Shown here: one piece after another, positions 13,913-35,615 of the stretch | How positions within the stretch are numbered: the stretch's first letter is position 1 | How the letters are laid out: every line of letters starts with the position of its first letter | Assembly: GCA_023061495.1 (NCBI GenBank) | Contig: GCA_023061495.1_3643.1 | DNA length: 64,000 nt | Direction: 5' to 3' (one strand) | Source: Escherichia coli | GTDB lineage: Bacteria > Pseudomonadota > Gammaproteobacteria > Enterobacterales > Enterobacteriaceae | The notes under the pieces: model-generated | Seen by the model: the letters and a program-made list of their open reading frames with translations, nothing else | Databases searched by the model: none | Told to the model about the DNA's origin: nothing | Position numbers and translations under genes: made by a program

Positions 13913-14728
13913 ATGGCTACGCTTTATAGTGATATATTGATGGACCCACAGACAGGCGATTTGGCGATAGACAAAGGTCTTGAGTTGATAGACTCAAACC
14001 AAGTAAGTCTGCGCCAGCGCCTGTGGATGAGGTTTAATACCTGGAAAGGGAGCTGGTACTTTGACGAGTTGTTTGGCTTCCCTTATATGGACTTTCTCAG
14101 TAAGAAGGTCATGAAGACTGTTCTTGATAACAAGATTATGGAAGTGGCAAGACAAGAGCCGGATGTGCTAAACATCATAAACTTCCAATCTACTATGGAT
14201 CGAAGATCGAGAACATATCAAGCGTTCTTTGAGGTTGTTACCAAGGAGAACGAGATTGTAAGACTTGCTTTCGTAGGTCTTGATCAGTTTACCTATCCAC
14301 AGCCTGATGCTGGGACAACCTCTCTCTGTGATGATGAAGGTTGGATTAAGTGGGCTAATAAACTGTACTACCTGATCAACTTTAGATTGCCTAGAACCGG
14401 GGATGCCACATGGTGGAACCAGTATGCCGGTCCTGAGATGGAAAACCCGATCCCTGTAGGCTCTCTGTTGACTCAGGATAAAGATCTGCTGATGACTGAG
14501 GCAGAACAAACCATTAACCGCAATACCTGGACGCTTGCTCCAGATGAGCGCGAATATTCTGGTGTTATTGCTACATCTAATGATGAGGCTATTGCCAACC
14601 AGTCTGACGTNNNNNNNNNNNNNNNNNNNNNNNNNNNNNNNNNNNNNNNNNNNNNNNNNNNNNNNNNNNNNNNNNNNNNNNNNNNNNNNNNNNNNNNNNN
14701 NNNNGGTCGTGCTATTGATGTTAACTAA
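13913..14728 (+). CDS. putative baseplate wedge protein (gp25/gpW-like N-terminal region); internal part masked by N
   Basis: 271 codons including a 94-nt N-run; N-terminal VSLRQRLWMRFNTWKGSWYFDELFGFPY resembles gp25/W-type baseplate proteins; reading frame preserved across the N-run. Confidence 0.4.
   Translation: MATLYSDILMDPQTGDLAIDKGLELIDSNQVSLRQRLWMRFNTWKGSWYFDELFGFPYMDFLSKKVMKTVLDNKIMEVARQEPDVLNIINFQSTMDRRSRTYQAFFEVVTKENEIVRLAFVGLDQFTYPQPDAGTTSLCDDEGWIKWANKLYYLINFRLPRTGDATWWNQYAGPEMENPIPVGSLLTQDKDLLMTEAEQTINRNTWTLAPDEREYSGVIATSNDEAIANQSDXXXXXXXXXXXXXXXXXXXXXXXXXXXXXXXXGRAIDVN
14611..14704. other. run of 94 N (masked or unresolved sequence) inside a CDS
   Basis: Literal N characters; flanking ORF remains in frame. 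Confidence 0.95.
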
Positions 14729-14737
14729 GGGGAAATC

Positions 14738-15406
14738 ATGGCTGTAGCTTATCCTACAATACCAATTCCAGATCTTGAAGATGCAGAAACAGTCCTGAGT
14801 GATGACTTCTTGGTTGTCAATCAGACTGATGGGACAAGAAAGGCTAAGATTGACGATGTTGTCAACGATCTCAGCATTACTAAAATAGTCTATTTCACAG
14901 AGGGCGGCTATCTTAAGAGCAAGAAGGACTTTGCTTATGACCCAGAGACCAAGCGCTACTACACGTGGAACGGGGATTATCCTAAAATAATCCTCCCAGA
15001 CTCTACTGTAGATGGTGCTGGGGGTGTGTCTGCAAAAGCCTGGTCTGTTTTTGGAGAGCTTGCTGCAACTTCTTCTGGTAGAATAGTTGATTACGGGTCT
15101 ATTGGTGGTCAGCTTGATATGGACCTTGAAGTTGCTGACACTTTTAAAGTTCGACTAACTTCAAATACCACGATCTCTTTTGAGAATCAAACAGAAGGTC
15201 TTGAAGGGGTGGCGAGAACTATAACCGTATGCATTACTCAGACATCTGGCGGCAACAAAGTCTATTGGCCTGATAATGTTAAATGGGCATACGGAAGAGA
15301 TCCTATCCTAACATTTACAGCTGGTGCAACAGATATTTTCAAGTTAGAAACCTACGACAACGGGTTAACTTGGTACGGGGCACTGATTATCGCAGGAGCT
15401 ATCTAA
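14738..15406 (+). CDS. receptor-binding-protein anchor-domain protein (short)
   Basis: 222 aa; N-terminus (LSDDFLVVNQTDGTRKAKIDDVV ... FTEGGYL ... FAYDPE) is paralogous to the N-terminus of the 1478-aa fibre at 18041. Confidence 0.5.
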   Translation: MAVAYPTIPIPDLEDAETVLSDDFLVVNQTDGTRKAKIDDVVNDLSITKIVYFTEGGYLKSKKDFAYDPETKRYYTWNGDYPKIILPDSTVDGAGGVSAKAWSVFGELAATSSGRIVDYGSIGGQLDMDLEVADTFKVRLTSNTTISFENQTEGLEGVARTITVCITQTSGGNKVYWPDNVKWAYGRDPILTFTAGATDIFKLETYDNGLTWYGALIIAGAI

Positions 15407-15407
15407 G

Positions 15408-18005
15408 ATGCGTATTCAACACAACATTGATAACGTATTTCAGATGATTGAGGGGCACAGGAAGTGCCTCGATAATAACACAGGTATTACCAATCTCCCC
15501 ACGCAGAACAAACTGGTAAACCAGGATGGGCTTATAGCGTCAGGTTGGTCAGGGAGCAAGATAAATAATGATTGGGCAATGCATGAGTCCCAAGCTGTGT
15601 TGATTCTGGGATACATTGAAGCATACAGGGCATCGAAAAGCGATTTCTACTTGGATAGGGCAAAAGCTGCTTGGGAAGCTTACAATAGTCATCTTCTAGG
15701 TGCATATGCAGTAGAAAGTAAAATGCAAAGATTGTCCCACTACCCATTATCCACAGATGGGGTTCCATCGCATGGCGGGTTTAAAGATGTAGTGGTGTCT
15801 TTTACCAATGGTAGAGGAAAAATCCCAGCTGGATCTCCGACATGGGGTGAATACCTAGACAAGGCATTCCAAGCGTATAACGGTGTGCTAGGAAGAAACA
15901 CTGTAGACTCTGATGTTTACGGCGGCACGGATGCTAACCCAAATTGGACAACATCTGGATTAAGTTGGTGGGTTGAGTGGTATATAGCATGGGATGGTAA
16001 CCGCTATTGGGCCAACGGTAGCATAGCCGACAGTGGTCATACGTCTGCAGAGTTCGGCACAATCCAACTGCAGGATAAGGGTGTTACAGGCAGCCACAAG
16101 GTAACCTACTGTGTGAGATTGCCACAAGAGCAGGGTGGATCGGTGATATCTGCTGGATCCCCTGTAATTGTAAACCCTATAAATGTGGTTGCAGACAATC
16201 AAGCCCCAGAGTTGGACGGGGAAGAAATGTGGTGTGACGCTTGTTATCAACTCTACACTTTGACAGACGAGGAAAAGTATTACACCGCGTTTAAACAGTC
16301 TTACAACAAGTTGCTTAATTTCAGTGATATAAATGCCTACGACAAGTTGTTTAGAAAGACCACGTTGATTAAGGCACCGTTCACAGATGGTACTTGTCTC
16401 GTTGCAGGAACAGTTCCTGTCATGAGTAGGGACAGCGACGGGTATATCAATTTTAGAATGAACGCACGCCAGCCTTGCGAAATAATCCAAAAAGGGACTA
16501 CATACAAGATAGGCAGAGATGCTGAAATTGTTATGAATTTCGGAGGAGAGGGGGTTCTGTTCCAGCCACATTTCATCCTTAATGATGGCAACAATAACAA
16601 AAAACAGTATAGGATAGGGGTCCCTTTTGGAGGGTCAGAGGTAACAGAGACAGTTGCCAAGGTTACTGATTTCGTAGAGGTGGTTGGTAAAGACGGTAAC
16701 CCGTATCTTCTGCCAAAAGAGGAAAACATTGCCGTAAGCGGTGGCGCTAGTGTTAGTATGCAATATGATACCGACATTTACAACCACTCCGACAACTTCA
16801 CCCGTTGCAACATAGTAAGAGGCAAAGTAACTTTAAATTTTGGAAGGGAGATTTCTTTAAACTCAGTAACTTATCGATCAGATGATGAGATGGTAAGGGT
16901 CAAATTTCTTGACAAAGACCGTTGGTTATGGTATGCTGATCTATATGCCACTAACGGACAATGGATAACAGAAACTCTTACCCTAGGTGATTTTAAACTA
17001 GATCCAACACAACTTCATCACACAGAAGATGAGATTAAACCTTTCTTTGCCAACCCTAAAGGAATTACCTCTGTAGATTTCAGTCTGAGCGACAGGCAGA
17101 TAGGCAATGGCTTGTTCGATCTGTATTGCGTCAACACTCTGCCGCAATTTTATGTTGCAGATAGGGATGCTTATCTGATCTGGTTTAGTGTATGGATGGC
17201 AAGCAAGACAGAATCAACCGCTAAGGTTGGTGATTGCTATGTCAGAAACTACAAGCAAGGTGCCTACAGGCACACCCCAGGTGTGTTCCCTGCCGGAAAG
17301 GTGATAGACAAGGAAAATTATCTCTTAGAGGAAAGGCCAAATTGGCCCTATCCCGGAATGCAATATCCGGTAGTCTACTGTATGGGTGCGGAAAACATAG
17401 ATCGTCAAAGATTGGCAAATACAATTGGATTTATGTACGACTCCCAAGTTTGGTATAATAACACATTTAAAACAGAAGGACCAGTTGCATCCCGCTACGT
17501 ATGGCAGCGAGGTAATGAGGGGTTGACTGGTTGGTGGGAGATGGTAGATAACTCTAAACTCCAATCAAGAGCCTTTGTTGCTGCGTGCCGCACACTATAT
17601 GAGCTTAAGAAACATAAAGAACCTGTTGATGAAAGACTGTTCCTGTTCTGCCAGAAATGGGCATGGTTCCTCAACAGATTCCAGTCATCTCATTCCGGAA
17701 ATCTACCTACAGACTTTAACACCTCTGGTGGATATTCTTATCAAGACAGAGGGGACAGGATGTGGGTGGTAGGTGAATGGCTTGCAGGTTGCTGCTGGCT
17801 AGGTCTGTGCGGGTATTCAGAGACAATACCTCAAATAGATATTGTTGTAGAAGCCTGTGTGAAGTTACTGCAAAAGCACCACTTCATTAACGGGGATAAT
17901 GTTTTAAACGGCTGCTGGGCAGTTTCTGATCCGGTAGGCTATCACTCTGGCGAAATCCTTCGCGGTCTGGGACTTTATGCCCAATACCGTGGATTGTACC
18001 TTTAA
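15408..18005 (+). CDS. large tail-associated protein, possible glycan-degrading enzyme domain (speculative)
   Basis: 865 aa starting 2 nt after the anchor-domain gene; Trp/Tyr-rich; C-terminal region resembles alpha/alpha-toroid hydrolases by eye only. Confidence 0.45.
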   Translation: MRIQHNIDNVFQMIEGHRKCLDNNTGITNLPTQNKLVNQDGLIASGWSGSKINNDWAMHESQAVLILGYIEAYRASKSDFYLDRAKAAWEAYNSHLLGAYAVESKMQRLSHYPLSTDGVPSHGGFKDVVVSFTNGRGKIPAGSPTWGEYLDKAFQAYNGVLGRNTVDSDVYGGTDANPNWTTSGLSWWVEWYIAWDGNRYWANGSIADSGHTSAEFGTIQLQDKGVTGSHKVTYCVRLPQEQGGSVISAGSPVIVNPINVVADNQAPELDGEEMWCDACYQLYTLTDEEKYYTAFKQSYNKLLNFSDINAYDKLFRKTTLIKAPFTDGTCLVAGTVPVMSRDSDGYINFRMNARQPCEIIQKGTTYKIGRDAEIVMNFGGEGVLFQPHFILNDGNNNKKQYRIGVPFGGSEVTETVAKVTDFVEVVGKDGNPYLLPKEENIAVSGGASVSMQYDTDIYNHSDNFTRCNIVRGKVTLNFGREISLNSVTYRSDDEMVRVKFLDKDRWLWYADLYATNGQWITETLTLGDFKLDPTQLHHTEDEIKPFFANPKGITSVDFSLSDRQIGNGLFDLYCVNTLPQFYVADRDAYLIWFSVWMASKTESTAKVGDCYVRNYKQGAYRHTPGVFPAGKVIDKENYLLEERPNWPYPGMQYPVVYCMGAENIDRQRLANTIGFMYDSQVWYNNTFKTEGPVASRYVWQRGNEGLTGWWEMVDNSKLQSRAFVAACRTLYELKKHKEPVDERLFLFCQKWAWFLNRFQSSHSGNLPTDFNTSGGYSYQDRGDRMWVVGEWLAGCCWLGLCGYSETIPQIDIVVEACVKLLQKHHFINGDNVLNGCWAVSDPVGYHSGEILRGLGLYAQYRGLYL

Positions 18006-18009
18006 CATA

Positions 18010-18030
18010 GGGGGCTGTTTGCCCCCTTTC
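18010..18030 (+). terminator. hairpin, weak terminator
   Basis: GGGGGC-TGTTT-GCCCCC followed by only TTT. Confidence 0.35.
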
Positions 18031-18040
18031 AGGAGAAAGA

Positions 18041-21000
18041 ATGGCTGATATTAAAGTTGTCAGAATTGAATCTCTTCCTGCCACTACCGCAGTGACAGAG
18101 GATGATTACCTGGTTGTTCAACAACCAGACCTGACCCGTCGTGTAAAAATTGGCGATGTTGTCCATGTGGATGGGACTGTTTCTCATGTAATCTCCTTTA
18201 AGGAAGGTGGTAAGTTAAACGGCCCAATGGATTTTGCCTACTTCGAAGAGGAAGACCTCTACCTGCGTTGGAAAGGCGAATTTCCGCACACTGTTCCTGC
18301 ACTGTCTTCACCTTACGCTGATGGTGGGATTACCGATGCTGCATGGATGGTATATACAGATCCGTCCTTAAGGGAGGAGCTGGAATCTACCATTGGTGCA
18401 TCTATGATCATGACAGCCGAAGGGCAGTCTGTCCAGGATGTAATGGATGTTACGGTTCAGACAGCCAACGATGCTAAAGCGCTTGCACAGCGGGTAGATT
18501 TTGGTACAGTGCATACTGTAGGCGATGTCATTCACCTTGTCAACTTTGTTGGTCCTGCAGTTATTGAAGAGGGAAGAACCACTAACTACCCTTCTGAAGC
18601 AGCTGGTGAAAAATTTCTGAACGGTGTGGTATCTCGTCGTGATACTACAACTGTTGATGGTATTTTCCGTGGCGCTACCTCAGGAGCCATGTATACCATT
18701 GCAGTAACCAACGGTGTAGCAACAACAAAAAGAATAGCACTTCGTGATGAATTTAAACGCCTGGAGGCAAACAATCCAACAAGAACAGTTATCCGTGCTG
18801 GAGATGATTTAAACACAGCAGGGTACTTGCAGCTTGATGCAACAGGCCGTTGGGGTATGTGGAACCAGCAAACAGCCTCGTGGCAACCTCTTGCTATAGA
18901 GCAAGGCGGTACAGGAGCCAGAGATGCCGCTGGAGTCCGTATCAATATCGGTGCTTTCTATAAGCAACGTGCAGCCCTTGAGGCAAATTTTAATATCAAT
19001 AACTTGACTGGTAATCAGGACGGCATATACTATCAGCCGATGACTGCTAATGCAACTGAGGCAAATGGTTACCCTGCAGGTTCTGGTGCTGGTCACTTGA
19101 TTGTTTGGCAGAACAATGCTAACGGCGGTACAGGTTGTCGTCAGGAATACTATCCATTCTCTAACGTGGATGTTTGGTATTTGAGAACCTATCAGGCTAA
19201 CACAAACCAGTGGACTGCATGGCAGCCGATGGTCAGACCTCGGAATGATGACACCTTCAGATCTCATATCGGCCTTGGTAAAAACAACTCTCCTGCTTTC
19301 GGGCACCTTTACTTAGCGCAATACTCAGGAGATGTTAAATCTGCTTCAGGTATTCTCCATGGAGATAAATATAACACTGATGGTGTTCTAGAGCATGGCT
19401 ATAGGATCTACTCCGAGGTAAGAAACGACAATAAGGCGTGGTTAACAATCCACCTGCACAAAGGCGCAAAAGGATCTGAAACTCATAGATATTTAGGCTT
19501 CCGTGAGGATGGGGTCTTAGATTGTCCTAAATATATGCAGGTTGGTGATCTGAACGGTCAGCTGGCAAACTGGGGACTTGGAGAATGGATTCGTAGTTCA
19601 GGGGCAGAAAGAGGATTCTGGGGTTCCAAGAAAGCCGCCAAGATGGTAGTCTGGGATGGAGGGATGGACGAGTCCGGTAATGGTACTCTGGAATGGGGTG
19701 TTTATAACAACCGGAAGGCCAAGTGGGAACCTTTACCTCAGGCCGCAGGTGGCACTGGAGCTACAACTTTAGCAGATGCTCAGAATCTGTTCAAAGTTCC
19801 TGTAGCGGCAGGCGTAAAAGATTTCTTAACACTGCCAAGAACTGCAGGAATGGAAGATGGGAAATACTACCCAATCATCGTTAGAACAGATCCATACTAT
19901 GCGCCCACAACTGGTACTGATATTACTATAGTTACCAGATCGTCATCTGGCAGTGACCCTATGAACTGTGCGACCTTACAGTGTCACTATAGAACTGGTG
20001 GGTGGACAGACAGAGGGGATTCTTTCCAAGGGGTTATTAATTTCTACCAAAACGAGAAAGCAATTCTTGGATGTGTATCCCCAACCAGAGGAAAGCAGGA
20101 GTATGTTGCATTCTATGTTGAGTCGCGTGCTTTCCCTGTCAGTGTCTACACAAGCAGAAACGTTCTTGAGGTATTTACCAGAGAAAATGACTGGCAGGTA
20201 GGAAATGTTACTAATAACCAAGATGGTGTCAAGTTTTGCGCCCCTCTTGCGTCGGATAATTTAAGCCTTGCAATTAAAGGTGATGATGTAACAAACACTA
20301 GGATTCTTGCGGAGTTCAAGGGAACACCTGGGTTCTATACAGGCGGTAGTACAGATCGGCACTATATAGGCACACCTGACCGAATGGTTCTGATGAGTAA
20401 GACAGAAATGCCCCCTGTAGAGATGTGGTACAACGGTCTTAACTACATTTGCCCGGGTAGCCAAACCACTAGAAAAGCACTGTTCTCTAACGCAGGGTTC
20501 CAAGCTGCATCGGAAGGAACAGGGGATCTGATCAACAATACCTTTACCTCTAAATGCGGTAATGGCGCAAGACTGCAAGGACAGGCAGAGTTCAGATCTA
20601 CTCCAGAGGCTGGTCAAGTTATTGTTCGTGATGTTGTAGGTTCTGCTCACAGATTCTACAACTTCAACAAAGATGGCACTTTCTCAGCTCCTGGTGGTTT
20701 TGTATGCCACACTGGTGCAGACTGGAACAACCAGTTTGGGCCTAATAACCCGTCCAAAATACTGGCTGGTAACGTCAACGGGCCTGAAGGTTCAATGGTT
20801 GTTGGCGGGTTGTCTGTGGCGTTTTCTGGAAACTATGCTTTCCAGATGGCAGGTAGTTTAGATCAGCTGTACACCCGTTCCATAGAGCGGGGTAACCACA
20901 GAGCGTGGAACAAAGTTATTCAGCACCGTGGTCAAGGGTTGGGGACTAGTGACCTTAACGATTACAAAGCGGATCGCGAAGGTATTTACCATCAAGAGGC

Positions 21001-22477
21001 AAATGCCAACGCCACAGCGGAAAGACACTACCCACCAGGGAAGCAGATGGCTGGTACGCTGATCGTGCTTAGAAACTCTGCCAACGAAGGTACAGGTTGT
21101 GTCCAGATATATAAAATGTATCTTGGGGGAACGTGGGAAAGGTACTATAATAACACTGGCAGCGGAATGAACTGGAGCCCTTGGAAGAGAACGAGCTTCC
21201 CAGAAAGTACAACTGCCCCAGTCATGCCTGACCTGTGGTTGCCTTTAACCTCTAATCTAAAACCTGTACTAGGTGAAGGTGAGATGGTGTTCTCCAGACC
21301 TTCTACAGCAACATATTTCACTAAGCGCGGTGTCATGGCTGTTGCACAGGCAAACCAACCACGTTTCGAAAGAGATGGTCTGCTCATTGAAGGTCAAAGG
21401 ACAAATCTGATGCTTAACAGTGAAGACCCGAGCAAATGGGGAGCCCAGTCACAGATTACGGTCGGCAACACTGTAACAAACACCAACGGCACAAAAGGTG
21501 CAAGATTTACAGTAAGCAACGTATCCGGTGTAGAAACAACGGCGTTAAACCTGGCTACAGTTCCAGCCACCCGAGGTGCAGATGTAACAGGTGCTGAGAA
21601 ATTTTGTACTGGATCTATTATTGCAAGAGGTGGTAAAGCTCACCAGAGACTGCGTGTAAGATTCGACATGTATAACGGATCCACCACAGTATTCCAGGGT
21701 GATGCCTATGTTAACCTGTCAACACTTGAAGTTAAAACAACAGGTGGTGCAGCTGGGAGAATTAAAGTAAAAGCTGAGAGATGGCAAACAGCCGGACCTG
21801 CTTGGATAAGGGTTGTTGCTACGTTTGAGGCAGTGGCCTCTGACATGAATATTGGGTGCCAGTTCCAGATTGCCCCGCCGGAGGGTTCTCAACACGCCGC
21901 AGGGGATTGGATTGACGTCGCAATACCTCAGTTTGAGTTAGGATCTTGTGAGTCCTCGTTTATCCCTACAGGGTCTTCACCAGTGACTAGGGCAGCAGAC
22001 CTTTGTAAATTCCCAATGACTGATAATTTAGCACCTAGACCGTTCACCATCGCCGCTACTGTGGATGCCAACTGGAGAGGTTGGGGAAAAGCTCCTAACG
22101 CAGCTCCTAGGGTTATTGATACAGAGGGTCGCGCTGCATTTATCATGGGGTTTGGCTCTGCAGCGAATATTGCAGAAGATGGTTATCCATATTGCGATAT
22201 TGGTGGTTCAAACAGACGTGTTTATGAGATGGCTAAAGCACGTAAGTTGAAGATGGGGTTCAGGATAAAAGAAGATGGTAAAACCTGCTCTTTTGCCAAC
22301 GGTCTGGTGAGCACGGAAACACAATCTTCTTGGGAATTCCTGGCAGGAGGCGCTCTCATCCGTCTCGGCGGTCAAACAGCGACAGGAGAAAGACATTTGT
22401 TTGGTCATATTAAAGATGTAAGAGTTTGGAACTCTGCATTGACCGATACCCAGCTTATGATGGAGAGTGTTGAATAA
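18041..22477 (+). CDS. long tail fibre protein with N-terminal anchor module, internal duplication and C-terminal LamG/ConA-like lectin motif
   Basis: 1478 aa; RBS AGGAGAAAG; anchor shared with 14738 gene; duplicated segment (...GHLIVWQNNANGGTGCRQEYY... vs ...GTLIVLRNSANEGTGCVQIYK...); C-terminal LFGHIKDVRVWNSALTDTQL. Confidence 0.6.
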   Translation: MADIKVVRIESLPATTAVTEDDYLVVQQPDLTRRVKIGDVVHVDGTVSHVISFKEGGKLNGPMDFAYFEEEDLYLRWKGEFPHTVPALSSPYADGGITDAAWMVYTDPSLREELESTIGASMIMTAEGQSVQDVMDVTVQTANDAKALAQRVDFGTVHTVGDVIHLVNFVGPAVIEEGRTTNYPSEAAGEKFLNGVVSRRDTTTVDGIFRGATSGAMYTIAVTNGVATTKRIALRDEFKRLEANNPTRTVIRAGDDLNTAGYLQLDATGRWGMWNQQTASWQPLAIEQGGTGARDAAGVRINIGAFYKQRAALEANFNINNLTGNQDGIYYQPMTANATEANGYPAGSGAGHLIVWQNNANGGTGCRQEYYPFSNVDVWYLRTYQANTNQWTAWQPMVRPRNDDTFRSHIGLGKNNSPAFGHLYLAQYSGDVKSASGILHGDKYNTDGVLEHGYRIYSEVRNDNKAWLTIHLHKGAKGSETHRYLGFREDGVLDCPKYMQVGDLNGQLANWGLGEWIRSSGAERGFWGSKKAAKMVVWDGGMDESGNGTLEWGVYNNRKAKWEPLPQAAGGTGATTLADAQNLFKVPVAAGVKDFLTLPRTAGMEDGKYYPIIVRTDPYYAPTTGTDITIVTRSSSGSDPMNCATLQCHYRTGGWTDRGDSFQGVINFYQNEKAILGCVSPTRGKQEYVAFYVESRAFPVSVYTSRNVLEVFTRENDWQVGNVTNNQDGVKFCAPLASDNLSLAIKGDDVTNTRILAEFKGTPGFYTGGSTDRHYIGTPDRMVLMSKTEMPPVEMWYNGLNYICPGSQTTRKALFSNAGFQAASEGTGDLINNTFTSKCGNGARLQGQAEFRSTPEAGQVIVRDVVGSAHRFYNFNKDGTFSAPGGFVCHTGADWNNQFGPNNPSKILAGNVNGPEGSMVVGGLSVAFSGNYAFQMAGSLDQLYTRSIERGNHRAWNKVIQHRGQGLGTSDLNDYKADREGIYHQEANANATAERHYPPGKQMAGTLIVLRNSANEGTGCVQIYKMYLGGTWERYYNNTGSGMNWSPWKRTSFPESTTAPVMPDLWLPLTSNLKPVLGEGEMVFSRPSTATYFTKRGVMAVAQANQPRFERDGLLIEGQRTNLMLNSEDPSKWGAQSQITVGNTVTNTNGTKGARFTVSNVSGVETTALNLATVPATRGADVTGAEKFCTGSIIARGGKAHQRLRVRFDMYNGSTTVFQGDAYVNLSTLEVKTTGGAAGRIKVKAERWQTAGPAWIRVVATFEAVASDMNIGCQFQIAPPEGSQHAAGDWIDVAIPQFELGSCESSFIPTGSSPVTRAADLCKFPMTDNLAPRPFTIAATVDANWRGWGKAPNAAPRVIDTEGRAAFIMGFGSAANIAEDGYPYCDIGGSNRRVYEMAKARKLKMGFRIKEDGKTCSFANGLVSTETQSSWEFLAGGALIRLGGQTATGERHLFGHIKDVRVWNSALTDTQLMMESVE

Positions 22478-24050: not shown

Positions 24051-24475
24051 TGAGCACACATCCTCGTTTAGTAGACTGGCAAGAAAGGTTGTGGAAAGTA
24101 TTTGACGAAGAAGCCACCGTCCCGTTTGAATGGGGATTCCACGATTGTTGCACTTTTGCTGCTAAGTGTGTTGATGCCCAATACGGAACAGATTTTCTTT
24201 CTAACTTTGAAGGAACGTATAAAACAGAGTTGGAAAGCAAGAGATGGTGCATGCTTCGTTTCAAAACCACACACCTACCTACTGTTTTTGATCTCTTTTT
24301 GACTCGACTGGATACTCCTAAACAGGTCCAGCGTGGTGATATTGTTATTTTCGAAGGTCTGAACGGCCTCACCGCTGGTGTGTTTTGGAACAACCAGATT
24401 TGGGCGAAAGGTGATAAAGGGATCTTTACGTTCGATATGAAAGATTCTATCGTTGTTGATGTCTGGAGGTATTAA
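24050..24475 (+). CDS. tail-tip protein with Cys-containing motif, possible NlpC/P60-like (lambda gpK-like; speculative)
   Basis: ATG 24050 preceded by GGGAGG, chosen over the track's TTG at 24038; motif FEWGFHDCCTFAAKCVD; directly upstream of the J-like gene. Confidence 0.35.
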   Translation: MSTHPRLVDWQERLWKVFDEEATVPFEWGFHDCCTFAAKCVDAQYGTDFLSNFEGTYKTELESKRWCMLRFKTTHLPTVFDLFLTRLDTPKQVQRGDIVIFEGLNGLTAGVFWNNQIWAKGDKGIFTFDMKDSIVVDVWRY

Positions 24476-25131
24476 TGCCAATTGCAATGATTGATAACAT
24501 CGTTGCTTCTGCAAGATCTTCAAGTTATGACTGGAACGCATCCAAGGCAGCTCTGGCTGACAGCCTGAACACTGTTACCACCAGAACTCTGGATAAGATT
24601 TTCGAGGGCAACAAATCTTACAGAAGTCAGCAAGATAGACAAAAGCTTCTCAGATCTTCTGCTGCACCTTGCTCTGTAGTATATGGAAAGACACGCACAT
24701 CTGGATTGCTTGCGTTTTTGGAGCAGGACAGAGACAGAACCCTTCATTGTGCTATTGTTCTTGCCAATCACCCTCTGGAAGGTATAGAAGATATACTTAT
24801 CGACGGTAATCCTATTTCCTCGTATGGAGATTTGGTATCGTGGGAGCTGCATAACGACAGAAAAACCTCTGATCCTTTCATGGGCACACACTGCCCATCG
24901 TGGTCACCGGACATGATAGGTAGAGGGATCAGTTGGCTACGAGTCAGCTTCAGGTTTGACCCTAACAAGTTTCCTTTTGGGTTGCCAAACGTCACACTCG
25001 TCAAGGTTGGTAAAAAATGCNNNNNNNNNNNNNNNNNNNNNNNNNNNNNNNNNNNNNNNNNNNNNNNNNNNNNNNNNNNNNNNNNNNNNNNNNNNNNNNN
25101 NNNNNNNNNNNNNNNNAAAAAAATGCTATGA
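24475..25131 (+). CDS. tail-tip protein; either a separate gene or the N-terminal part of the J-like protein (unresolved because of N-run)
   Basis: RBS GGAGG then ATG 24475; frame-1 ORF runs into the N-run at 25021-25116 and stops four codons after it; the downstream J-like ORF is in another frame. Confidence 0.35.
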   Translation: MPIAMIDNIVASARSSSYDWNASKAALADSLNTVTTRTLDKIFEGNKSYRSQQDRQKLLRSSAAPCSVVYGKTRTSGLLAFLEQDRDRTLHCAIVLANHPLEGIEDILIDGNPISSYGDLVSWELHNDRKTSDPFMGTHCPSWSPDMIGRGISWLRVSFRFDPNKFPFGLPNVTLVKVGKKCXXXXXXXXXXXXXXXXXXXXXXXXXXXXXXXXKKML

Positions 25132-28100
25132 TCCTCGCACCAGTAAAGAGGTGTATACCAATAACGCTGCCTTGGTGATTCTGGACTATTTAAGAACATA
25201 CCTTAAATGTCCTGACGAAACCATCAACTGGGAGTCCTTCAAGGAGGCTGCCAACATATGCGACGAGGCTGTAAGAAACGCAGACGGAACCAGCGAGCGT
25301 CGTTACACCATTAATGGTGAGTTTGACATGGATGAAGCACCAGCGAGTATTATGGCAGAAATGCTGAAAGCTTGTGGTGCAGATCTTAGCTATGTAGCTG
25401 GTAAGTATGGTCTGCTGGTAGGTGCATACTATGGCCCGGCAACAATGACACTGAGTGAGGACTGTGTTTGCGGTGAGGTTAAGATCTATCCGGAAGCCTC
25501 TTTCGACAAGAGATCGAACACAATAACTGGCAGATTCACTAGTCCAACCAAAGGGTATTCTGAAACAGATTTTCCATCAGTGTTTGTCCCAGAGTGGATA
25601 GAGAAGGATGGAGAAAGAAAGATAATTGATATAGATTATCGTTTTGTTACCAGCCCTTATCAAGCTCAGCGTGTTTCTGCAATCTTCTTAAGACGTGCCC
25701 GAGCTGGCAGGATTATTGAAGTAACCTGCAATATGCGAGGTTTTAAATTTAAACCTGGGCGTTACGTTACGATGAATCTTCCAAGTATTGGTATAGTGGG
25801 CCAAGAAATGAGGGTTCTTGAATGGGAGTTCACCAAAAAGGGCGGTGTCAAGGTAAAACTCCGTCAAGATGCTAAAGAGTGGAATGATGCCACAGGGCAA
25901 CTTCCGGATTCTGGAGATGTGGATATTCCGATATCCCCGTCCGGCGTAGCTCAACCGCAAAACTTCAGATACTCTGTTCTTCAAGCTGGGGAAGTAACTC
26001 ATGGTGTTTTGGCTTGGGACAACGTTGGAACTTATGCTCAAAATATTGTGCAGGTAAGAAAGAACGGAGAGATTATTTGGACAGCACAGACAGTTGAGCA
26101 GTTTGTCCGCGTAGAAGGATTGACCAAAGGGTCATACACAGCAACCGTGGTTGCAACATCTTATAAAGGTGGTGTATCTCCAGAAGCTTACTGCGAGTTT
26201 AACATTCAAGCACCTGAAGCTCCTGTTTCTGTAGAAGTTAAGCAGGGATACTTTGCTATCACCTTGATTCCGCACAGCAGGGACTTAGCAAGTGTAAGCA
26301 CCCAGTATGATTTTTGGACATCTGGTATGACAAGGTTGCCGGACACAAGTGATGCAACCGTTACTTCAAAAGCCACCCGTATGGGTGTTGGTTCAACTTG
26401 GACATCTGAAGGTCTGCAGAACGATAAGATTTATTATTGGTATATTCGAACCACAAACGCTTTTGGTAGTTCTCAGTTTGTAGAATGCGCTGCACGCTGC
26501 TACACCTCTATTGAAGATTTGATGCCTCAGATAGATGCTGAATTTAAAAAGACAGAAACTTATAAAGAGTTGATGAGCACTTTAGATTCCTCTATCGAGG
26601 AGGTTGAAAATCGTGTCACAGAACTTAACAGGTACATGGATGGTAGAGTTGACGAGGCTTTTGACCGCATGGAAGGTGAGTTCTCTAGAGTAGACAAGCT
26701 GTATGCTCAGTTGGGGGATAGGGTTGGAATATTCATCCAAGAAACCCACGACAACTTCCAGGACGTTAATGGAACGCTTACCACTCTAGACCAGAAACTG
26801 GTAGCCACTCAGAACAAGTTTGCAGATGATCTTTCTAAAGAAAGTGGTAAGCTGACTTCTCTAATACAGACCACCAACAAAGCTACAACCGATCTGTTAA
26901 ATCAGAAAACTGAAGCTTTGGACGAGAAGATTGTTTCAACAAGGGGTGAATTGGAAGATGCTTTGGCACAGGAAAGCTCTGAGCTGAACTCTCTGATTGT
27001 TTCAACCAATAAAACGACTACAGATCTCCTTAATCGGAAAACCGAGGCTTTAGACAATAAGCTGACAGCAACGAAAGGTGAGTTGACCAACAATCTGCAA
27101 AATGAGAGTGCTAAACTATCATCCTTGATTGAGTCAACCAACAAATCCACCACTGATCTTCTTAATAAGAAAACAGAGGCGTTGGATGAAAAACTGGTTG
27201 CTGCACAGGGCGAGTTGACTGAGCAGATCGGAGATGTTGAAAAAGGCTATCTGGCTGGTGATAAGAGCCTAGAGGGCAAGTTGAATACTCAAAGATCTGA
27301 GTTGGATGCGAGCATTCTGAGCACTAACCAGGCCACTGTGGACTTGCTGAACAGAACTTCTGAGACTCTTGACCAGAAGATTAGCCAGACCAACGCCACA
27401 GTGTCCAAAAACTACACCACGCTTGATGGTAAGATAAACACCGCCAAGTCTGATCTTAATACGTTGATTTCTACCACCAACAAGGCCACAACTGACCTAT
27501 TGAATCAGAAAACGGCAGCTTTGACTGAGCAGTTAACCACTGCTAAAGGGCAGATTACAACCAACACCAATAACATTACCGGGTTGGATAATAAGCTGAC
27601 TCAGACTAAGAAAGAATTGTCTGCGAATATTTCTGAAACTAATAAGTCTACTGTTGACCTTATTAATGGCACAGCGTCAGCTATTCGTCAAGAACTTGCT
27701 GTTGCTAAGCAGGAGATTATTGATGATGTTGGAGATGTGACCGAACTCAGAGCTGCAGTGGCTACAACATCTAAGGCTGTGACCGACTTAGAGGGCAAAG
27801 TAAATGCTCAATGGGGCACAAAAATACAGGTAGACTCCGCAGGGAATAAGTATGTGGCAGGTATCCAGTTAGGCATGGAAGGCTCTGGAGGCCAAGTTCA
27901 GTCATATTTCATGGTTAGCGCAAACAACTTTGCGGTATACAACCCAGGCAATGGAACAGCAACCCTTGCTTTCGCAATCAAGAACAACCAAGCGTTCTTG
28001 AAAGACGCTTTTATAGAGAACGGCACGATCTCTTCTGCCAAGATCGCGCAAGAAATTTCGTCAAACAACTACGATGGCAACGGGTACCACAAATACGGTT

Positions 28101-28726
28101 GGTATATTAACAAGAACGGGCACGCCCAGTTTATGGATGTGTGGGTGAAAGGTAACATCAACGCTAGTGCAGGTAACTTCACAGGGGCAGTTAACGCCAC
28201 CAGTGGTACCTTCCGTGGAGATGTTTATGCCAACAATGGTAGCTTTAGAGGGACCATAGATGCAACAGGAGGTACATTCCGTGGACGTGTAGAAGCTTCC
28301 GTTATCCGTGCTAACCAGTTCGAAGGTGCGATTGTTGCACACAGGACTTACGGAGATTGTGCTCCAGTATATAACTCGCAGCAAAGGGTTTGCCGTTGGA
28401 GGTGGAGATATGTGGACAACGTGCAAGGCCAAGGTAAAAACGTAACATTCTTCTTTAAACTGAACGGTACTCGTGCCAACTCTCAACTAAATGCGTGGAT
28501 AGCTGGTCACCAACTACTTGCTGGCAAGAAGTACGGAAACGATAACGATGGCATGTGTGCAGTTGGGATAACAGGTCTAGGTGAACAAACTATAGACATT
28601 ATTATCGAGATTTACACACCATGGTCAACAGGGAACGTGACAGGCATTACAATATCTTGTCCTACAGTCGTTGTAAGTCGTTCTAACTCAAGTTTCCAAG
28701 GTCCTTGGAATGAGTCTCACGACTAA
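24956..28726 (+). CDS. host-specificity / central tail fibre protein, lambda gpJ-like (true start uncertain, probably within or before the N-run)
   Basis: About 1250 codons; post-mask region and the C-terminal block (YVAGIQLGMEGSGGQVQSYFMVSANNFAVYNPGNGTA...) resemble lambda J as recalled; internal coiled-coil repeat array; UUCG terminator downstream. Confidence 0.55.
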   Translation: MTLTSFLLGCQTSHSSRLVKNXXXXXXXXXXXXXXXXXXXXXXXXXXXXXXXXXKKCYDPRTSKEVYTNNAALVILDYLRTYLKCPDETINWESFKEAANICDEAVRNADGTSERRYTINGEFDMDEAPASIMAEMLKACGADLSYVAGKYGLLVGAYYGPATMTLSEDCVCGEVKIYPEASFDKRSNTITGRFTSPTKGYSETDFPSVFVPEWIEKDGERKIIDIDYRFVTSPYQAQRVSAIFLRRARAGRIIEVTCNMRGFKFKPGRYVTMNLPSIGIVGQEMRVLEWEFTKKGGVKVKLRQDAKEWNDATGQLPDSGDVDIPISPSGVAQPQNFRYSVLQAGEVTHGVLAWDNVGTYAQNIVQVRKNGEIIWTAQTVEQFVRVEGLTKGSYTATVVATSYKGGVSPEAYCEFNIQAPEAPVSVEVKQGYFAITLIPHSRDLASVSTQYDFWTSGMTRLPDTSDATVTSKATRMGVGSTWTSEGLQNDKIYYWYIRTTNAFGSSQFVECAARCYTSIEDLMPQIDAEFKKTETYKELMSTLDSSIEEVENRVTELNRYMDGRVDEAFDRMEGEFSRVDKLYAQLGDRVGIFIQETHDNFQDVNGTLTTLDQKLVATQNKFADDLSKESGKLTSLIQTTNKATTDLLNQKTEALDEKIVSTRGELEDALAQESSELNSLIVSTNKTTTDLLNRKTEALDNKLTATKGELTNNLQNESAKLSSLIESTNKSTTDLLNKKTEALDEKLVAAQGELTEQIGDVEKGYLAGDKSLEGKLNTQRSELDASILSTNQATVDLLNRTSETLDQKISQTNATVSKNYTTLDGKINTAKSDLNTLISTTNKATTDLLNQKTAALTEQLTTAKGQITTNTNNITGLDNKLTQTKKELSANISETNKSTVDLINGTASAIRQELAVAKQEIIDDVGDVTELRAAVATTSKAVTDLEGKVNAQWGTKIQVDSAGNKYVAGIQLGMEGSGGQVQSYFMVSANNFAVYNPGNGTATLAFAIKNNQAFLKDAFIENGTISSAKIAQEISSNNYDGNGYHKYGWYINKNGHAQFMDVWVKGNINASAGNFTGAVNATSGTFRGDVYANNGSFRGTIDATGGTFRGRVEASVIRANQFEGAIVAHRTYGDCAPVYNSQQRVCRWRWRYVDNVQGQGKNVTFFFKLNGTRANSQLNAWIAGHQLLAGKKYGNDNDGMCAVGITGLGEQTIDIIIEIYTPWSTGNVTGITISCPTVVVSRSNSSFQGPWNESHD
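25021..25116. other. run of 96 N (masked or unresolved sequence)
   Basis: Literal N characters; the reading frame changes across this run, unlike the other three N-runs. Confidence 0.95.
26850..27790 (+). repeat. tandem coding repeats (about six degenerate 40-60-aa coiled-coil units) inside the J-like gene
   Basis: Recurring units such as L-x-S-L-I-x-T-T-N-K-x-T-T-D-L-L-N-x-K-T-E-A-L-D-x-K-L visible in the translation. Confidence 0.6.
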
Positions 28727-35159: not shown

Positions 35160-35615
35160 ATGACTAAACCAGTTATCCCTCTTGATATTTGGGCCAATCA
35201 GGATGTTGTGCTTGAAAATACGGGAGAATTGAATAAGTCCCAACCAAAAAAAGAAGAGAGATTGAAAGGTTGGGATATGACACAAAGAGTGGCATGTGAG
35301 GTTGTTAACTTTGAACTTCACATGCTTTCTGCGTGNNNNNNNNNNNNNNNNNNNNNNNNNNNNNNNNNNNNNNNNNNNNNNNNNNNNNNNNNNNNNNNNN
35401 NNNNNNNNNNNNNNNNNNNNNNNNNNNNNNNGGGTGTTGAAGATGTAAGGATAGCAAACCGCTTCAGAACCACCTACAGAGAATCAAGAGTATACCCTGG
35501 GCATGTAATGTGCTCCGGCAATTACGCCTATAAACACCCGTATCAAGGTGACTATTGGACTGGTGCTATTCAAAAATTTGTAAACGGTCAATGGATTACC
35601 ATATCTTATGCTTAA
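35160..35615 (+). CDS. short tail fibre paralogue (middle masked by N)
   Basis: ATG 35160 preceded by CAGGAGA; shares N- and C-terminal motifs (YWTGAIQKFVNGQWITISYA) with the 33104 gene; frame preserved across a 96-nt N-run. Confidence 0.5.
   Translation: MTKPVIPLDIWANQDVVLENTGELNKSQPKKEERLKGWDMTQRVACEVVNFELHMLSAXXXXXXXXXXXXXXXXXXXXXXXXXXXXXXXXXGVEDVRIANRFRTTYRESRVYPGHVMCSGNYAYKHPYQGDYWTGAIQKFVNGQWITISYA
35336..35431. other. run of 96 N (masked or unresolved sequence) inside a CDS
   Basis: Literal N characters; flanking ORF remains in frame. Confidence 0.95.

Follow-up and report, generated by a model that had tools for sequence, protein, structure and literature searches.

The locus described here raises the question of how two adjacent tail genes act together: a short gene whose product carries the same N-terminal virion anchor as a nearby 1478-aa fibre, and a long gene, directly downstream, whose product looks enzyme-like. 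The original prediction left open whether they form a two-component spike (an adaptor plus a depolymerase) or represent a frameshift or fusion. The pair was analysed within a 64,000-nt stretch of DNA from assembly GCA_023061495.1 (hereafter the window), which belongs to a Vequintavirus and is 98% identical to phage FV3. We consider it likely that the genes encode two separate virion proteins that jointly form one tail appendage, the first as an adaptor and the second as its glycosidase-like partner.

Genomic context of the gene pair

The pair and its neighbours are arranged as follows:

13913..14728, + strand: baseplate/sheath-initiator gene, phi92 gp139-like (upstream context)
14738..15406, + strand: adaptor gene, 222 aa (from the open reading frame list), orthologue of rV5 gp43 and phi92 gp140
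15408..18005, + strand: 865-aa tail protein gene, orthologue of rV5 gp42 and phi92 gp141
18041..22477, + strand: 1478-aa lateral tail fibre, rV5 gp41 allele (context outside the pair, with the same N-terminal anchor)

The upstream gene was identified from the annotations of EmilHeitz, HMD-6, and phi92 and from the phi92 cryo-EM paper; as a baseplate or sheath-initiator gene, it places the pair in the baseplate/fibre block. The window's genes are members of the same families as rV5 gp43/gp42 (Vequintavirinae) and phi92 gp140/gp141 (Stephanstirmvirinae), which occupy the same position after the sheath initiator, and the rV5 and phi92 pairs are both annotated as tail fibre and tail protein. The phi92-type adaptor differs in being shorter (157 aa) and in lacking Tail_spike_N, whereas its large partner is longer (958 aa). 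In the window both genes are ordinary tail genes and are already annotated as such. Presence of the orthologues in the virion is known from the literature, as mass spectrometry of rV5 virions detected gp41, gp42, and gp43 (PMC3606486).

The gene pair is strongly conserved inside the genus, with the adaptor gene showing 90–99% nucleotide identity across 120 Vequintavirus records. The 1478-aa fibre is variable between relatives, with at least 80% of its length covered in just 35 of 122 records.

Domain structure of the 222-aa protein

Three features were delimited in the 222-aa protein:

14738..15052, + strand: N-terminal virion-anchor module, residues 1 to about 105, with Tail_spike_N at residues 51–104
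15080..15403, + strand: conserved C-terminal beta-sandwich, residues about 115–222, proposed to dock the 865-aa protein
[quoted passage not shown]

The anchor is indeed common to the 222-aa protein and the 1478-aa fibre, as had been predicted: BLASTP aligned adaptor residues 8–105 with fibre residues 7–105 at 38% identity (E 3e-18), and Pfam Tail_spike_N (PF18668) was detected in both, at 41.9 bits in the adaptor (E 1.1e-10) and 38.4 bits in the fibre, above the curated cut-off of 25. The module was absent from every other open reading frame of the window. The adaptor N-terminus also matched tailspike N-termini among PDB sequences, including CBA120 TSP3 and TSP4, and the protein matched PHROG 7760 (tail fiber protein) along its full length (E 1.5e-118, residues 1–221 against a 223-position profile).

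The 222-aa protein had been described as an anchor and little else, a description that no longer holds, since residues of about 115–222 constitute a separately conserved domain. This C-terminal domain was kept in all nine small upstream open reading frames taken from unrelated phages, with L140, Q168, G171, N173, W177, W183, L191, D199, G209, W212, and G214 invariant, and it was found nowhere else within the window. In the structure prediction that had been suggested for this protein, AF2 modelled the C-terminal domain confidently as all-beta (pLDDT about 85), and the anchor module with low confidence (pLDDT below 50). Structural matches to the C-terminal domain were weak, with Z no higher than 6.9.

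The label "sialidase domain protein" in BASEL records probably derives from the Asp-box of the adaptor, and the ZCKP1 orthologue matched Pfam BNR weakly, at a sub-threshold E of 0.065. The window's 222-aa protein gave no Pfam BNR match, contains a single Asp-box (residues 205–212), and is modelled as a small beta-sandwich; the sialidase or BNR-repeat label was rejected on these grounds.

Predicted fold of the 865-aa protein

The AF2 model of the 865-aa protein is a six-hairpin (alpha/alpha)6 barrel, split by two inserted beta regions:

15408..15695, + strand: barrel segment 1, residues 1–96 (model secondary structure), with E60 and Q62 at a helix start
15708..16211, + strand: first inserted beta domain, residues about 101–268, from the strand pattern in the AF2 model
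16212..16322, + strand: barrel segment 2, residues 269–305, with D270 and E272 at a helix N-terminus
16392..17246, + strand: second inserted beta-rich region, residues about 329–613, with invariant D502
17367..18002, + strand: barrel segment 3, residues 654–865, with conserved Q680, W699, and R721

The prediction that this protein would be enzyme-like was thus borne out at the level of fold, at which it belongs to the six-hairpin glycosidase superfamily. The best structural neighbours of the model were glycoside hydrolases, at an identity of just 9–13%, and its structural relatives in BFVD are labelled tail fibres. At the sequence level, the protein matched PHROG 2871 (tail protein) with 1168 bits over residues 1–863. 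No match to Pfam or NCBIfam was obtained, including the profiles of GH8, GH48, GH76, and GH88/105, and a profile search of PDB sequences returned short marginal matches (E 0.002–0.05). These searches revealed no anchor module in the 865-aa protein, Tail_spike_N being confined to the 222-aa protein and the fibre, which agrees with the original prediction.

Among 40 sequences, E60 was conserved in 38, Q62 in 40, D270 in 38, and E272 in 35. Three acidic residues at helix N-termini (E60, D270, and E272), together with D502, Q680, W699, and R721, are near-invariant across homologues of 23–30% identity, and all of these are kept in the window's protein. Several family-consensus motifs are absent from it (NNRHFI, WIVNGKEP, WHNRP, TDGISY, IPFSNIY, WNRWDN, and others). 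The window's protein thus diverges from the rest of its family, and its activity could be altered or lost.

The six-hairpin fold and the conserved acidic residues suggest that the protein may be a depolymerase. An alternative that we regard as unlikely is that the complex forms as proposed and the 865-aa protein is no enzyme in it, acting as a glycan-binding or purely structural baseplate module. The lack of a Pfam glycoside hydrolase match, the low identity to enzymes, and the loss of many consensus motifs are consistent with such a role; the six-hairpin fold is also shared by non-hydrolases, epimerases and cyclases among them, and conservation within the genus is very strong, unlike that of the variable capsule or O-antigen depolymerases. 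However, the near-invariant acidic and polar residues that were kept form a pattern typical of an active or ligand-binding site, and glycoside hydrolases are the top structural neighbours.

Pairing of the two proteins across phages

Homologues were collected by exhaustive HMMER search and tblastn, as word-indexed searches gave three close relatives only. The large protein matched 525 of 50,697 phage records by tblastn (about 1% of sequenced phages). The C-terminal domain of the adaptor, searched alone by tblastn, also matched 525 phage records, at one place each and with the same split by genus, and among the matches listed the two were adjacent in every record common to both searches. In 71 of the 82 loci inspected, which were those with enough upstream DNA, an HMM of the C-terminal domain found it ending at most 75 nt before the large gene. 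In annotated loci from unrelated phage groups, an open reading frame of 156–270 aa lay directly upstream of the large gene in nine of nine cases. The synteny is obligate among these matches, and it extends over rV5-like, phi92-like, Felix O1-like, and jumbo myoviruses, T7-like, phiEco32-like, and 7-11-like podoviruses, and P2-like elements.

The N-termini of the adaptors formed at least 20 clusters unrelated by BLAST, while the C-terminal domain was constant. Known fibre anchors were among these N-termini, namely Tail_spike_N, phage_tail_N, Phage_tail_fib, and, in an Aeromonas podovirus, Phage_T7_tail. On the side of the large protein, matches to the family began at residue 5–20 in nearly all of 88 representatives, the exceptions being proteins in which the barrel is fused to an anchor. 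The distance matrices of the C-terminal domain and the large protein were correlated (Mantel r 0.52, a value reached in 0 of 2000 permutations), a correlation that may stem from shared descent alone.

Ten P2-like loci lack the adaptor, and in these Tail_P2_I (the baseplate protein gpI) and the barrel form one fused protein, within the gene order Baseplate_J, gpI::barrel fusion, fibre, and fibre chaperone (Caudo_TAP). The six-hairpin domain here forms the C-terminal extension of a bona fide P2 gpI wedge protein, whereas the window's 865-aa protein has no gpI domain. Homologues of the large protein fused to unrelated N-termini, with no anchor gene beside them, had been named in advance as evidence against a two-component spike. 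Such fusions do formally exist in the P2-like loci, but the fused N-terminus is itself a baseplate anchor, so these loci support the adaptor idea and do not refute it. When the N-terminal extension of about 270 aa in the fused forms P0022, P0031, P0032, P0062, and L078 was compared with the adaptor C-terminal domain by hhalign, E was 0.029, falling to 0.004 once the profile was enriched, and the probabilities were 2–8%; one hmmsearch match scored 11.4 bits. These values are no more than suggestive of a divergent copy of the domain in the extension. The label "tail protein I" on relatives such as ZCSE2 was probably transferred from the gpI fusions.

The pairing across about 525 records, the swapped anchors, and the gpI fusions give the two-component reading of the original prediction good support from comparative genomics, except that the small protein is not anchor-only. 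We consider it very improbable that the 222-aa protein stands alone as a short fibre or spike whose C-terminal domain binds the receptor, with the 865-aa protein attached in some other way and adjacency reflecting gene order only. Many records do label the adaptor a tail fiber protein, and the phi92 cryo-EM paper considered gp140 as a fibre candidate by itself. Against this, the gene order would have to persist among myoviruses, jumbo phages, T7-like podoviruses, and P2-like elements, which have almost nothing else in common, even as the adaptor N-terminus was replaced each time. Moreover, the large protein has no anchor of its own, and in loci without the adaptor it is joined to a baseplate protein.

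Junction between the two genes

Two further features define how the genes meet:

15394..15398, + strand: Shine-Dalgarno sequence AGGAG for the 865-aa gene, inside the end of the adaptor gene and 9 nt ahead of the start codon at 15408
15404..15410, + strand: gene junction TAA-G-ATG, a translationally coupled pair with no recoding site

The sequence confirms the predicted 2-nt step between the open reading frames: the adaptor TAA ends at 15406, and the ATG of the 865-aa gene follows at 15408 after a single G. This 1-nt gap and the +1 frame of the 865-aa gene relative to the adaptor gene, together with the fused N-terminal extension on the large domain in a minority of relatives, would agree with a single gene expressed by programmed frameshifting or stop-codon read-through as one anchor-plus-enzyme polypeptide. 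The sequence around the junction speaks against this, as the frame of the 865-aa gene contains a TGA at 15384, 24 nt upstream of the ATG, read-through of the adaptor TAA would add just seven residues, and the AGGAG is canonical. No slippery heptamer or homopolymer run was present within 15200–15450, a range that includes the positions suggested for inspection (15400–15410). In 70 other loci the junction varied from −29 to +22 nt with all three relative frames in use, so there is no conserved recoding site, and two genes were called in every annotated record. No slippery site was found, nor a leaky stop followed by an open frame, that relatives would share, and the frameshift or read-through fusion, which we hold to be extremely improbable, was rejected on the in-frame TGA, the missing slippery site, and the varying junctions.

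A role of the 222-aa protein as a chaperone in the assembly of the 865-aa protein, without being retained in the virion, has next to no probability: small genes beside fibre genes are often chaperones, and P2-like loci contain the Caudo_TAP chaperone, but this small gene lies upstream and not downstream of its partner, its product and its counterparts carry recognised virion-anchor modules, and rV5 gp43 was detected in purified virions.

Proposed arrangement of the appendage

In the adaptor and cargo arrangement that we favour, the proteins would be translated separately, with the 865-aa gene coupled to the adaptor gene through its own Shine-Dalgarno sequence. Residues 1 to about 105 of the adaptor would act as the anchor and attach it either at the baseplate periphery or to another fibre, and its C-terminal beta-sandwich of about 105 residues, with the terminal Asp-box, would hold the 865-aa protein. 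The latter, having no anchor of its own, would most likely bind, and probably cleave, a host-conserved surface glycan. The analysis shows the gene structure, the shared anchor, the conserved C-terminal domain, the fold, the synteny, the exchange of anchors, and the gpI fusions; the binding of the C-terminal domain to the 865-aa protein, the stoichiometry, and the catalytic activity and substrate of the 865-aa protein are inferred.

Comparison with known systems

The branched tailspikes of CBA120 (TSP1–4) and G7C (gp66/gp63.1) use an anchor from the same Pfam family, Tail_spike_N (in TSP1 and Gp66). In these phages, one protein reportedly serves to hold a second one, which has enzymatic activity, on the tail (work credited to Plattner et al. 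2019). As in such branched complexes, a virion-binding N-terminus lies on the anchor protein, here the 222-aa protein, and the cargo has no anchor of its own, the 865-aa protein starting directly with the barrel. The docking parts differ: the hub docking domains of the CBA120, G7C, and K1-5 type are T4 gp10-like, whereas the adaptor C-terminal domain is an Asp-box beta-sandwich, and the cargo of those systems carries an N-terminal docking domain, whereas the 865-aa protein has no N-terminal extension.

In K1-5, K1E, SP6, and T7-like Klebsiella phages, which combine a truncated gp17-type anchor with a separate depolymerase, a short platform-specific fibre N-terminus likewise presents a separately encoded enzyme. 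The version of the cassette in the Aeromonas podovirus Atoyac23 begins with exactly a Phage_T7_tail N-terminus. The K1-5/T7-like systems differ in docking domain and cargo fold and, unlike in them, the C-terminal domain and barrel move as a unit between myovirus, podovirus, and P2-like platforms. The 865-aa protein is likewise distinct from GH48, GH8, GH105/GH88, and GH76 enzymes and AGE-type epimerases, to which its identity is low and from whose Pfam/NCBIfam profiles no match was obtained; compared with these six-hairpin glycoside hydrolases and epimerases, its barrel is split by the two large beta insertions.

In later citations of Schwarzer et al. 2012, phi92 Gp141 appears as a glycosidase. 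No description of an adaptor-cargo complex for this protein pair was found in the accessible literature, and a literature search combining the six-hairpin fold with phage tails returned nothing; the view of a cassette shared across phage families appears to be new. More tentatively, and with a probability that we place well short of even, the Asp-box beta-sandwich could be a universal docking domain, new to the literature, which, with the six-hairpin protein, makes up a portable glycanase cassette grafted onto tails by exchange of the adaptor N-terminus, accounting for the unassigned rV5/phi92 fibre density and acting on a host-conserved glycan and not on a capsule or O-antigen specific to one serotype.

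The rV5-like and phi92-like phages are popular for therapy and biocontrol because of their "Swiss-army-knife" tails. The BASEL paper called the assignment of genes to fibres in these phages unclear, and recent cryo-EM studies of them left tail densities unassigned; the 2026 study of phi92 assigned no protein to fibre II, and gp141 was not among the proteins it considered. Pairs of the gp43/gp42 type, taken as an adaptor-cargo unit, are a concrete candidate for such densities, and the same view would give a defined engineering boundary between anchor and C-terminal domain. Since the cassette is conserved within genera, the glycan that it targets could be an envelope component common to many hosts, which would aid host-range prediction and enzyme discovery.

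Genomic context of the gene pair

The stretch 14705–18040 shared 98.1% identity with Escherichia phage FV3 and 90–99% with 120 phage records, nearly all of the genus Vequintavirus (rV5-like myoviruses). In annotated relatives, the genes for the tape measure, tube initiator, hub, and central spike are followed by a baseplate/sheath-initiator gene, the gene pair studied here, and a fibre gene. The corresponding features, assigned from annotated relatives and, for the pair, also from the ORFs, are:

13913–14728, baseplate/sheath-initiator protein gene
14738–15406 (+), gene for the 222-aa protein (adaptor)
15408–18005 (+), gene for the 865-aa protein
18041–22477 (+), large lateral tail fibre gene (1478-aa product)

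By position and size, rV5 gp43/gp42 and phi92 gp140/gp141 are the counterparts of the pair. In rV5, gp41, gp42, and gp43 were detected in virions by mass spectrometry, and the gp43 N-terminus has been likened to that of the P22 tailspike (PMC3606486). The pair consists of ordinary, conserved, and already annotated Vequintavirus tail genes.

Approximately 18–23 "Campylobacter phage" records (host Campylobacter jejuni; for example, MG065652, MG065662, MG065666, and MG065677) shared about 94% identity with the E. coli Vequintavirus region studied here and are probably mislabelled or contaminant assemblies. The window also contained four N runs of 94–98 nt (14611–14704, 25021–25116, 35336–35431, and 42436–42533). 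The first falls near the end of the sheath-initiator gene, within its 3' part, and, with its flanks, corresponds to a 99-nt in-frame insertion absent from FV3, EmilHeitz, and HMD-6. The second is spanned by two overlapping ORFs in different frames (24475–25131 and 24956–28726) of a large fibre gene at 24475–28726, the EmilHeitz counterpart of which is a single 1279-aa CDS; the masked bases may have caused this split.

Two polypeptides and a shared anchor

Both ORFs were recovered as originally predicted, the second starting 2 nt after the first (TAA at 15404–15406, one G, then ATG). The proposed likeness between the N-termini of the adaptor and the 1478-aa fibre was borne out by BLASTP (38% identity, E 3e-18; residues 8–105 against 7–105), and both proteins matched Pfam Tail_spike_N above the curated threshold, an anchor type found in no further ORF of the 64-kb window. 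The 865-aa protein indeed lacked an anchor module, with no match in Pfam or NCBIfam. The description of the 222-aa protein as an anchor and little else was wrong, since several different small "tail fiber" PHROG families matched it, all in the C-terminal ~100 residues only.

The alternative that frameshifting or read-through yields a single polypeptide was rejected. A TGA 24 nt upstream of the ATG closes the frame of the 865-aa gene, neither slippery heptamers nor homopolymer runs occurred in the final 200 nt of the adaptor gene, and suppression of the TAA would add only seven residues. Across 70 other loci, the two genes overlapped by up to 29 nt or lay up to 22 nt apart, with the downstream gene in relative frame +1 in 45, +2 in 22, and 0 in 3. 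With AGGAG located 9 nt upstream of the ATG, the pair is two polypeptides with ordinary translational coupling.

A conserved adaptor domain adjoining the large protein

Full-length relatives of the 865-aa protein were detected by tblastn in 525 phage records at 26–37% identity, including Phapecoctavirus, Justusliebigvirus, and Seunavirus-type phages, jumbo Asteriusvirus and Seoulvirus, Felix O1-like Kolesnikvirus, Loughboroughvirus, Grimontviridae, Vibrio phages, and T7-like Aeromonas podoviruses. All nine loci inspected individually carried a 156–270-aa ORF directly upstream of the large gene. Alignment of these small proteins revealed unrelated N-terminal parts and a well-conserved C-terminal domain of ~105 residues (C-domain), with 11 invariant positions and a terminal Asp-box (T-Y-D-N-G-L-T-W in the window protein). 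An HMM of the C-domain was run on 88 loci (8 from phage records and 80 from IMG/VR); among the 82 with enough upstream DNA, it was found on the same strand, ending at most 75 nt before the large gene, in 71 (70 counted by script plus L058). In the reciprocal tblastn, the window C-domain alone matched a single place in each of 525 phage records, whose spread over genera was practically that seen for the large protein, and its coordinates abutted the large gene in every record shared among the matches listed for both. Pairwise divergences of the C-domain and the large protein were correlated (Mantel r 0.52, reached by 0 of 2000 permutations), a pattern that fits a cassette inherited as a unit but that shared descent alone can also yield.

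One database protein, P0061 (293 aa), had the reversed order: its first ~195 residues resembled the N-terminus of the large protein, and residues 201–281 matched the C-domain (HMM E 4e-19). Either recombination or an assembly artefact may explain this protein.

Exchanged anchors and fused forms

The adaptor N-terminal parts fell into at least 20 clusters mutually without BLAST similarity, several of which are recognised fibre anchors: Tail_spike_N (window), Phage_T7_tail (Aeromonas podovirus Atoyac23), phage_tail_N (lambda-type side-fibre N-terminus), and Phage_tail_fib (P2 gpH-type N-terminus). One adaptor was a 448-aa fibre in which fibre repeats precede the same C-domain.

The adaptor was absent in eleven loci. 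Ten of these were P2-like clusters (L033, L038, L040, L041, L045, L046, L048, L052, L053, and L055; contigs of ~18–20 kb) in which a genuine Tail_P2_I baseplate domain (E 5e-52; residues 6–142) and the large domain form one 1097-aa fusion protein, its gene (for example, L033 2458–5751) lying between Baseplate_J and a normal fibre and chaperone. The eleventh locus and four database proteins carried a ~270-aa N-terminal extension on the large protein, which might conceivably hide a divergent C-domain. The large protein is thus always supplied with a virion anchor, usually by an adaptor in trans and sometimes by fusion in cis.

Conservation within the genus

The pair was covered to at least 80% at 90–99% identity in 119 of the 120 related records, whereas the 1478-aa fibre gene reached this coverage in only 35 of 122, mostly at 80–90% identity, in agreement with the BASEL paper's statement that variation is confined to the three largest fibre genes. 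The pair belongs to the conserved core rather than being a variable specificity factor; should the 865-aa protein be an enzyme, a substrate shared by hosts across the genus would be expected.

Fold and conserved residues of the 865-aa protein

Among 1.84 billion representatives searched exhaustively with HMMER, only 88 relatives were found, and all members with a visible source were phage records or viral contigs; the family appears small and phage-associated. The AF2 model (40-sequence alignment; pLDDT 88.3, pTM 0.83) showed a six-hairpin (alpha/alpha)6 glycosidase-like barrel with helices at 2–23, 59–96, 269–305, and 654–864 and beta-rich insertions at ~101–268 and ~329–613. Homologues were otherwise 23–30% identical, and the window protein kept all of the near-invariant polar residues.

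Conservation of residues of the 865-aa protein among 40 aligned sequences
E60: 38/40
Q62: 40/40
D270: 38/40
E272: 35/40
D502: 40/40
Q680: 40/40
W699: 40/40
R721: 38/40

Catalytic residues of the six-hairpin superfamily usually lie at barrel-helix N-termini, where the model places E60 and D270/E272, and the conserved residues would fit a putative glycan-binding or glycan-cleaving site. Compared with alignment A2 of the family, the Vequintavirus protein was an outlier with short deletions, missing several family motifs, among them NNRHFI, WIVNGKEP, WHNRP, TDGISY, IPFSNIY, and WNRWDN..YG..DT.TMYHWGD while keeping the near-invariant polar residues; because of these missing motifs, the glycan site is proposed with less than full confidence. 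A passage in a review, after Schwarzer et al. 2012, refers to phi92 Gp141 as a "glycosidase".

In Erwinia phage phiEa21-4 gp72 (L005 5161–8634), the first beta region was enlarged by an extra insertion of ~200 residues, and other relatives were extended C-terminally by several hundred, reaching total lengths of up to 1795 aa; added domains are therefore tolerated by the barrel.

Relation to known receptor-binding systems

As a reading of sequence and gene order, the originally suggested two-component spike, an adaptor with an enzyme-like partner, is well supported by adjacency, anchor swapping, and gpI-type fusions; depolymerase activity we only infer, together with the physical interaction, stoichiometry, catalysis, and substrate of the pair. 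No description of an adaptor plus six-hairpin cassette was found in the literature searched, and the recognition of this conserved tail-gene pair as a widespread modular cassette is what the analysis adds. The 2026 phi92 cryo-EM paper treats gp140 as a fibre candidate, leaves gp141 out of consideration, and assigns no protein to fibre II; in Bas49 and Bas54, the RBPseg study fitted three of nine annotated fibres.

Branched or two-component receptor-binding complexes are well described in CBA120, G7C, K1-5/SP6, and T7-like Klebsiella phages. Unlike in those systems, the cargo here is a six-hairpin barrel without a docking domain of its own, docking is proposed to occur through an Asp-box beta-sandwich of the adaptor, and C-domain and barrel travel together while the anchor is exchanged. 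This C-domain and barrel unit spans myovirus, podovirus, and P2-like platforms.
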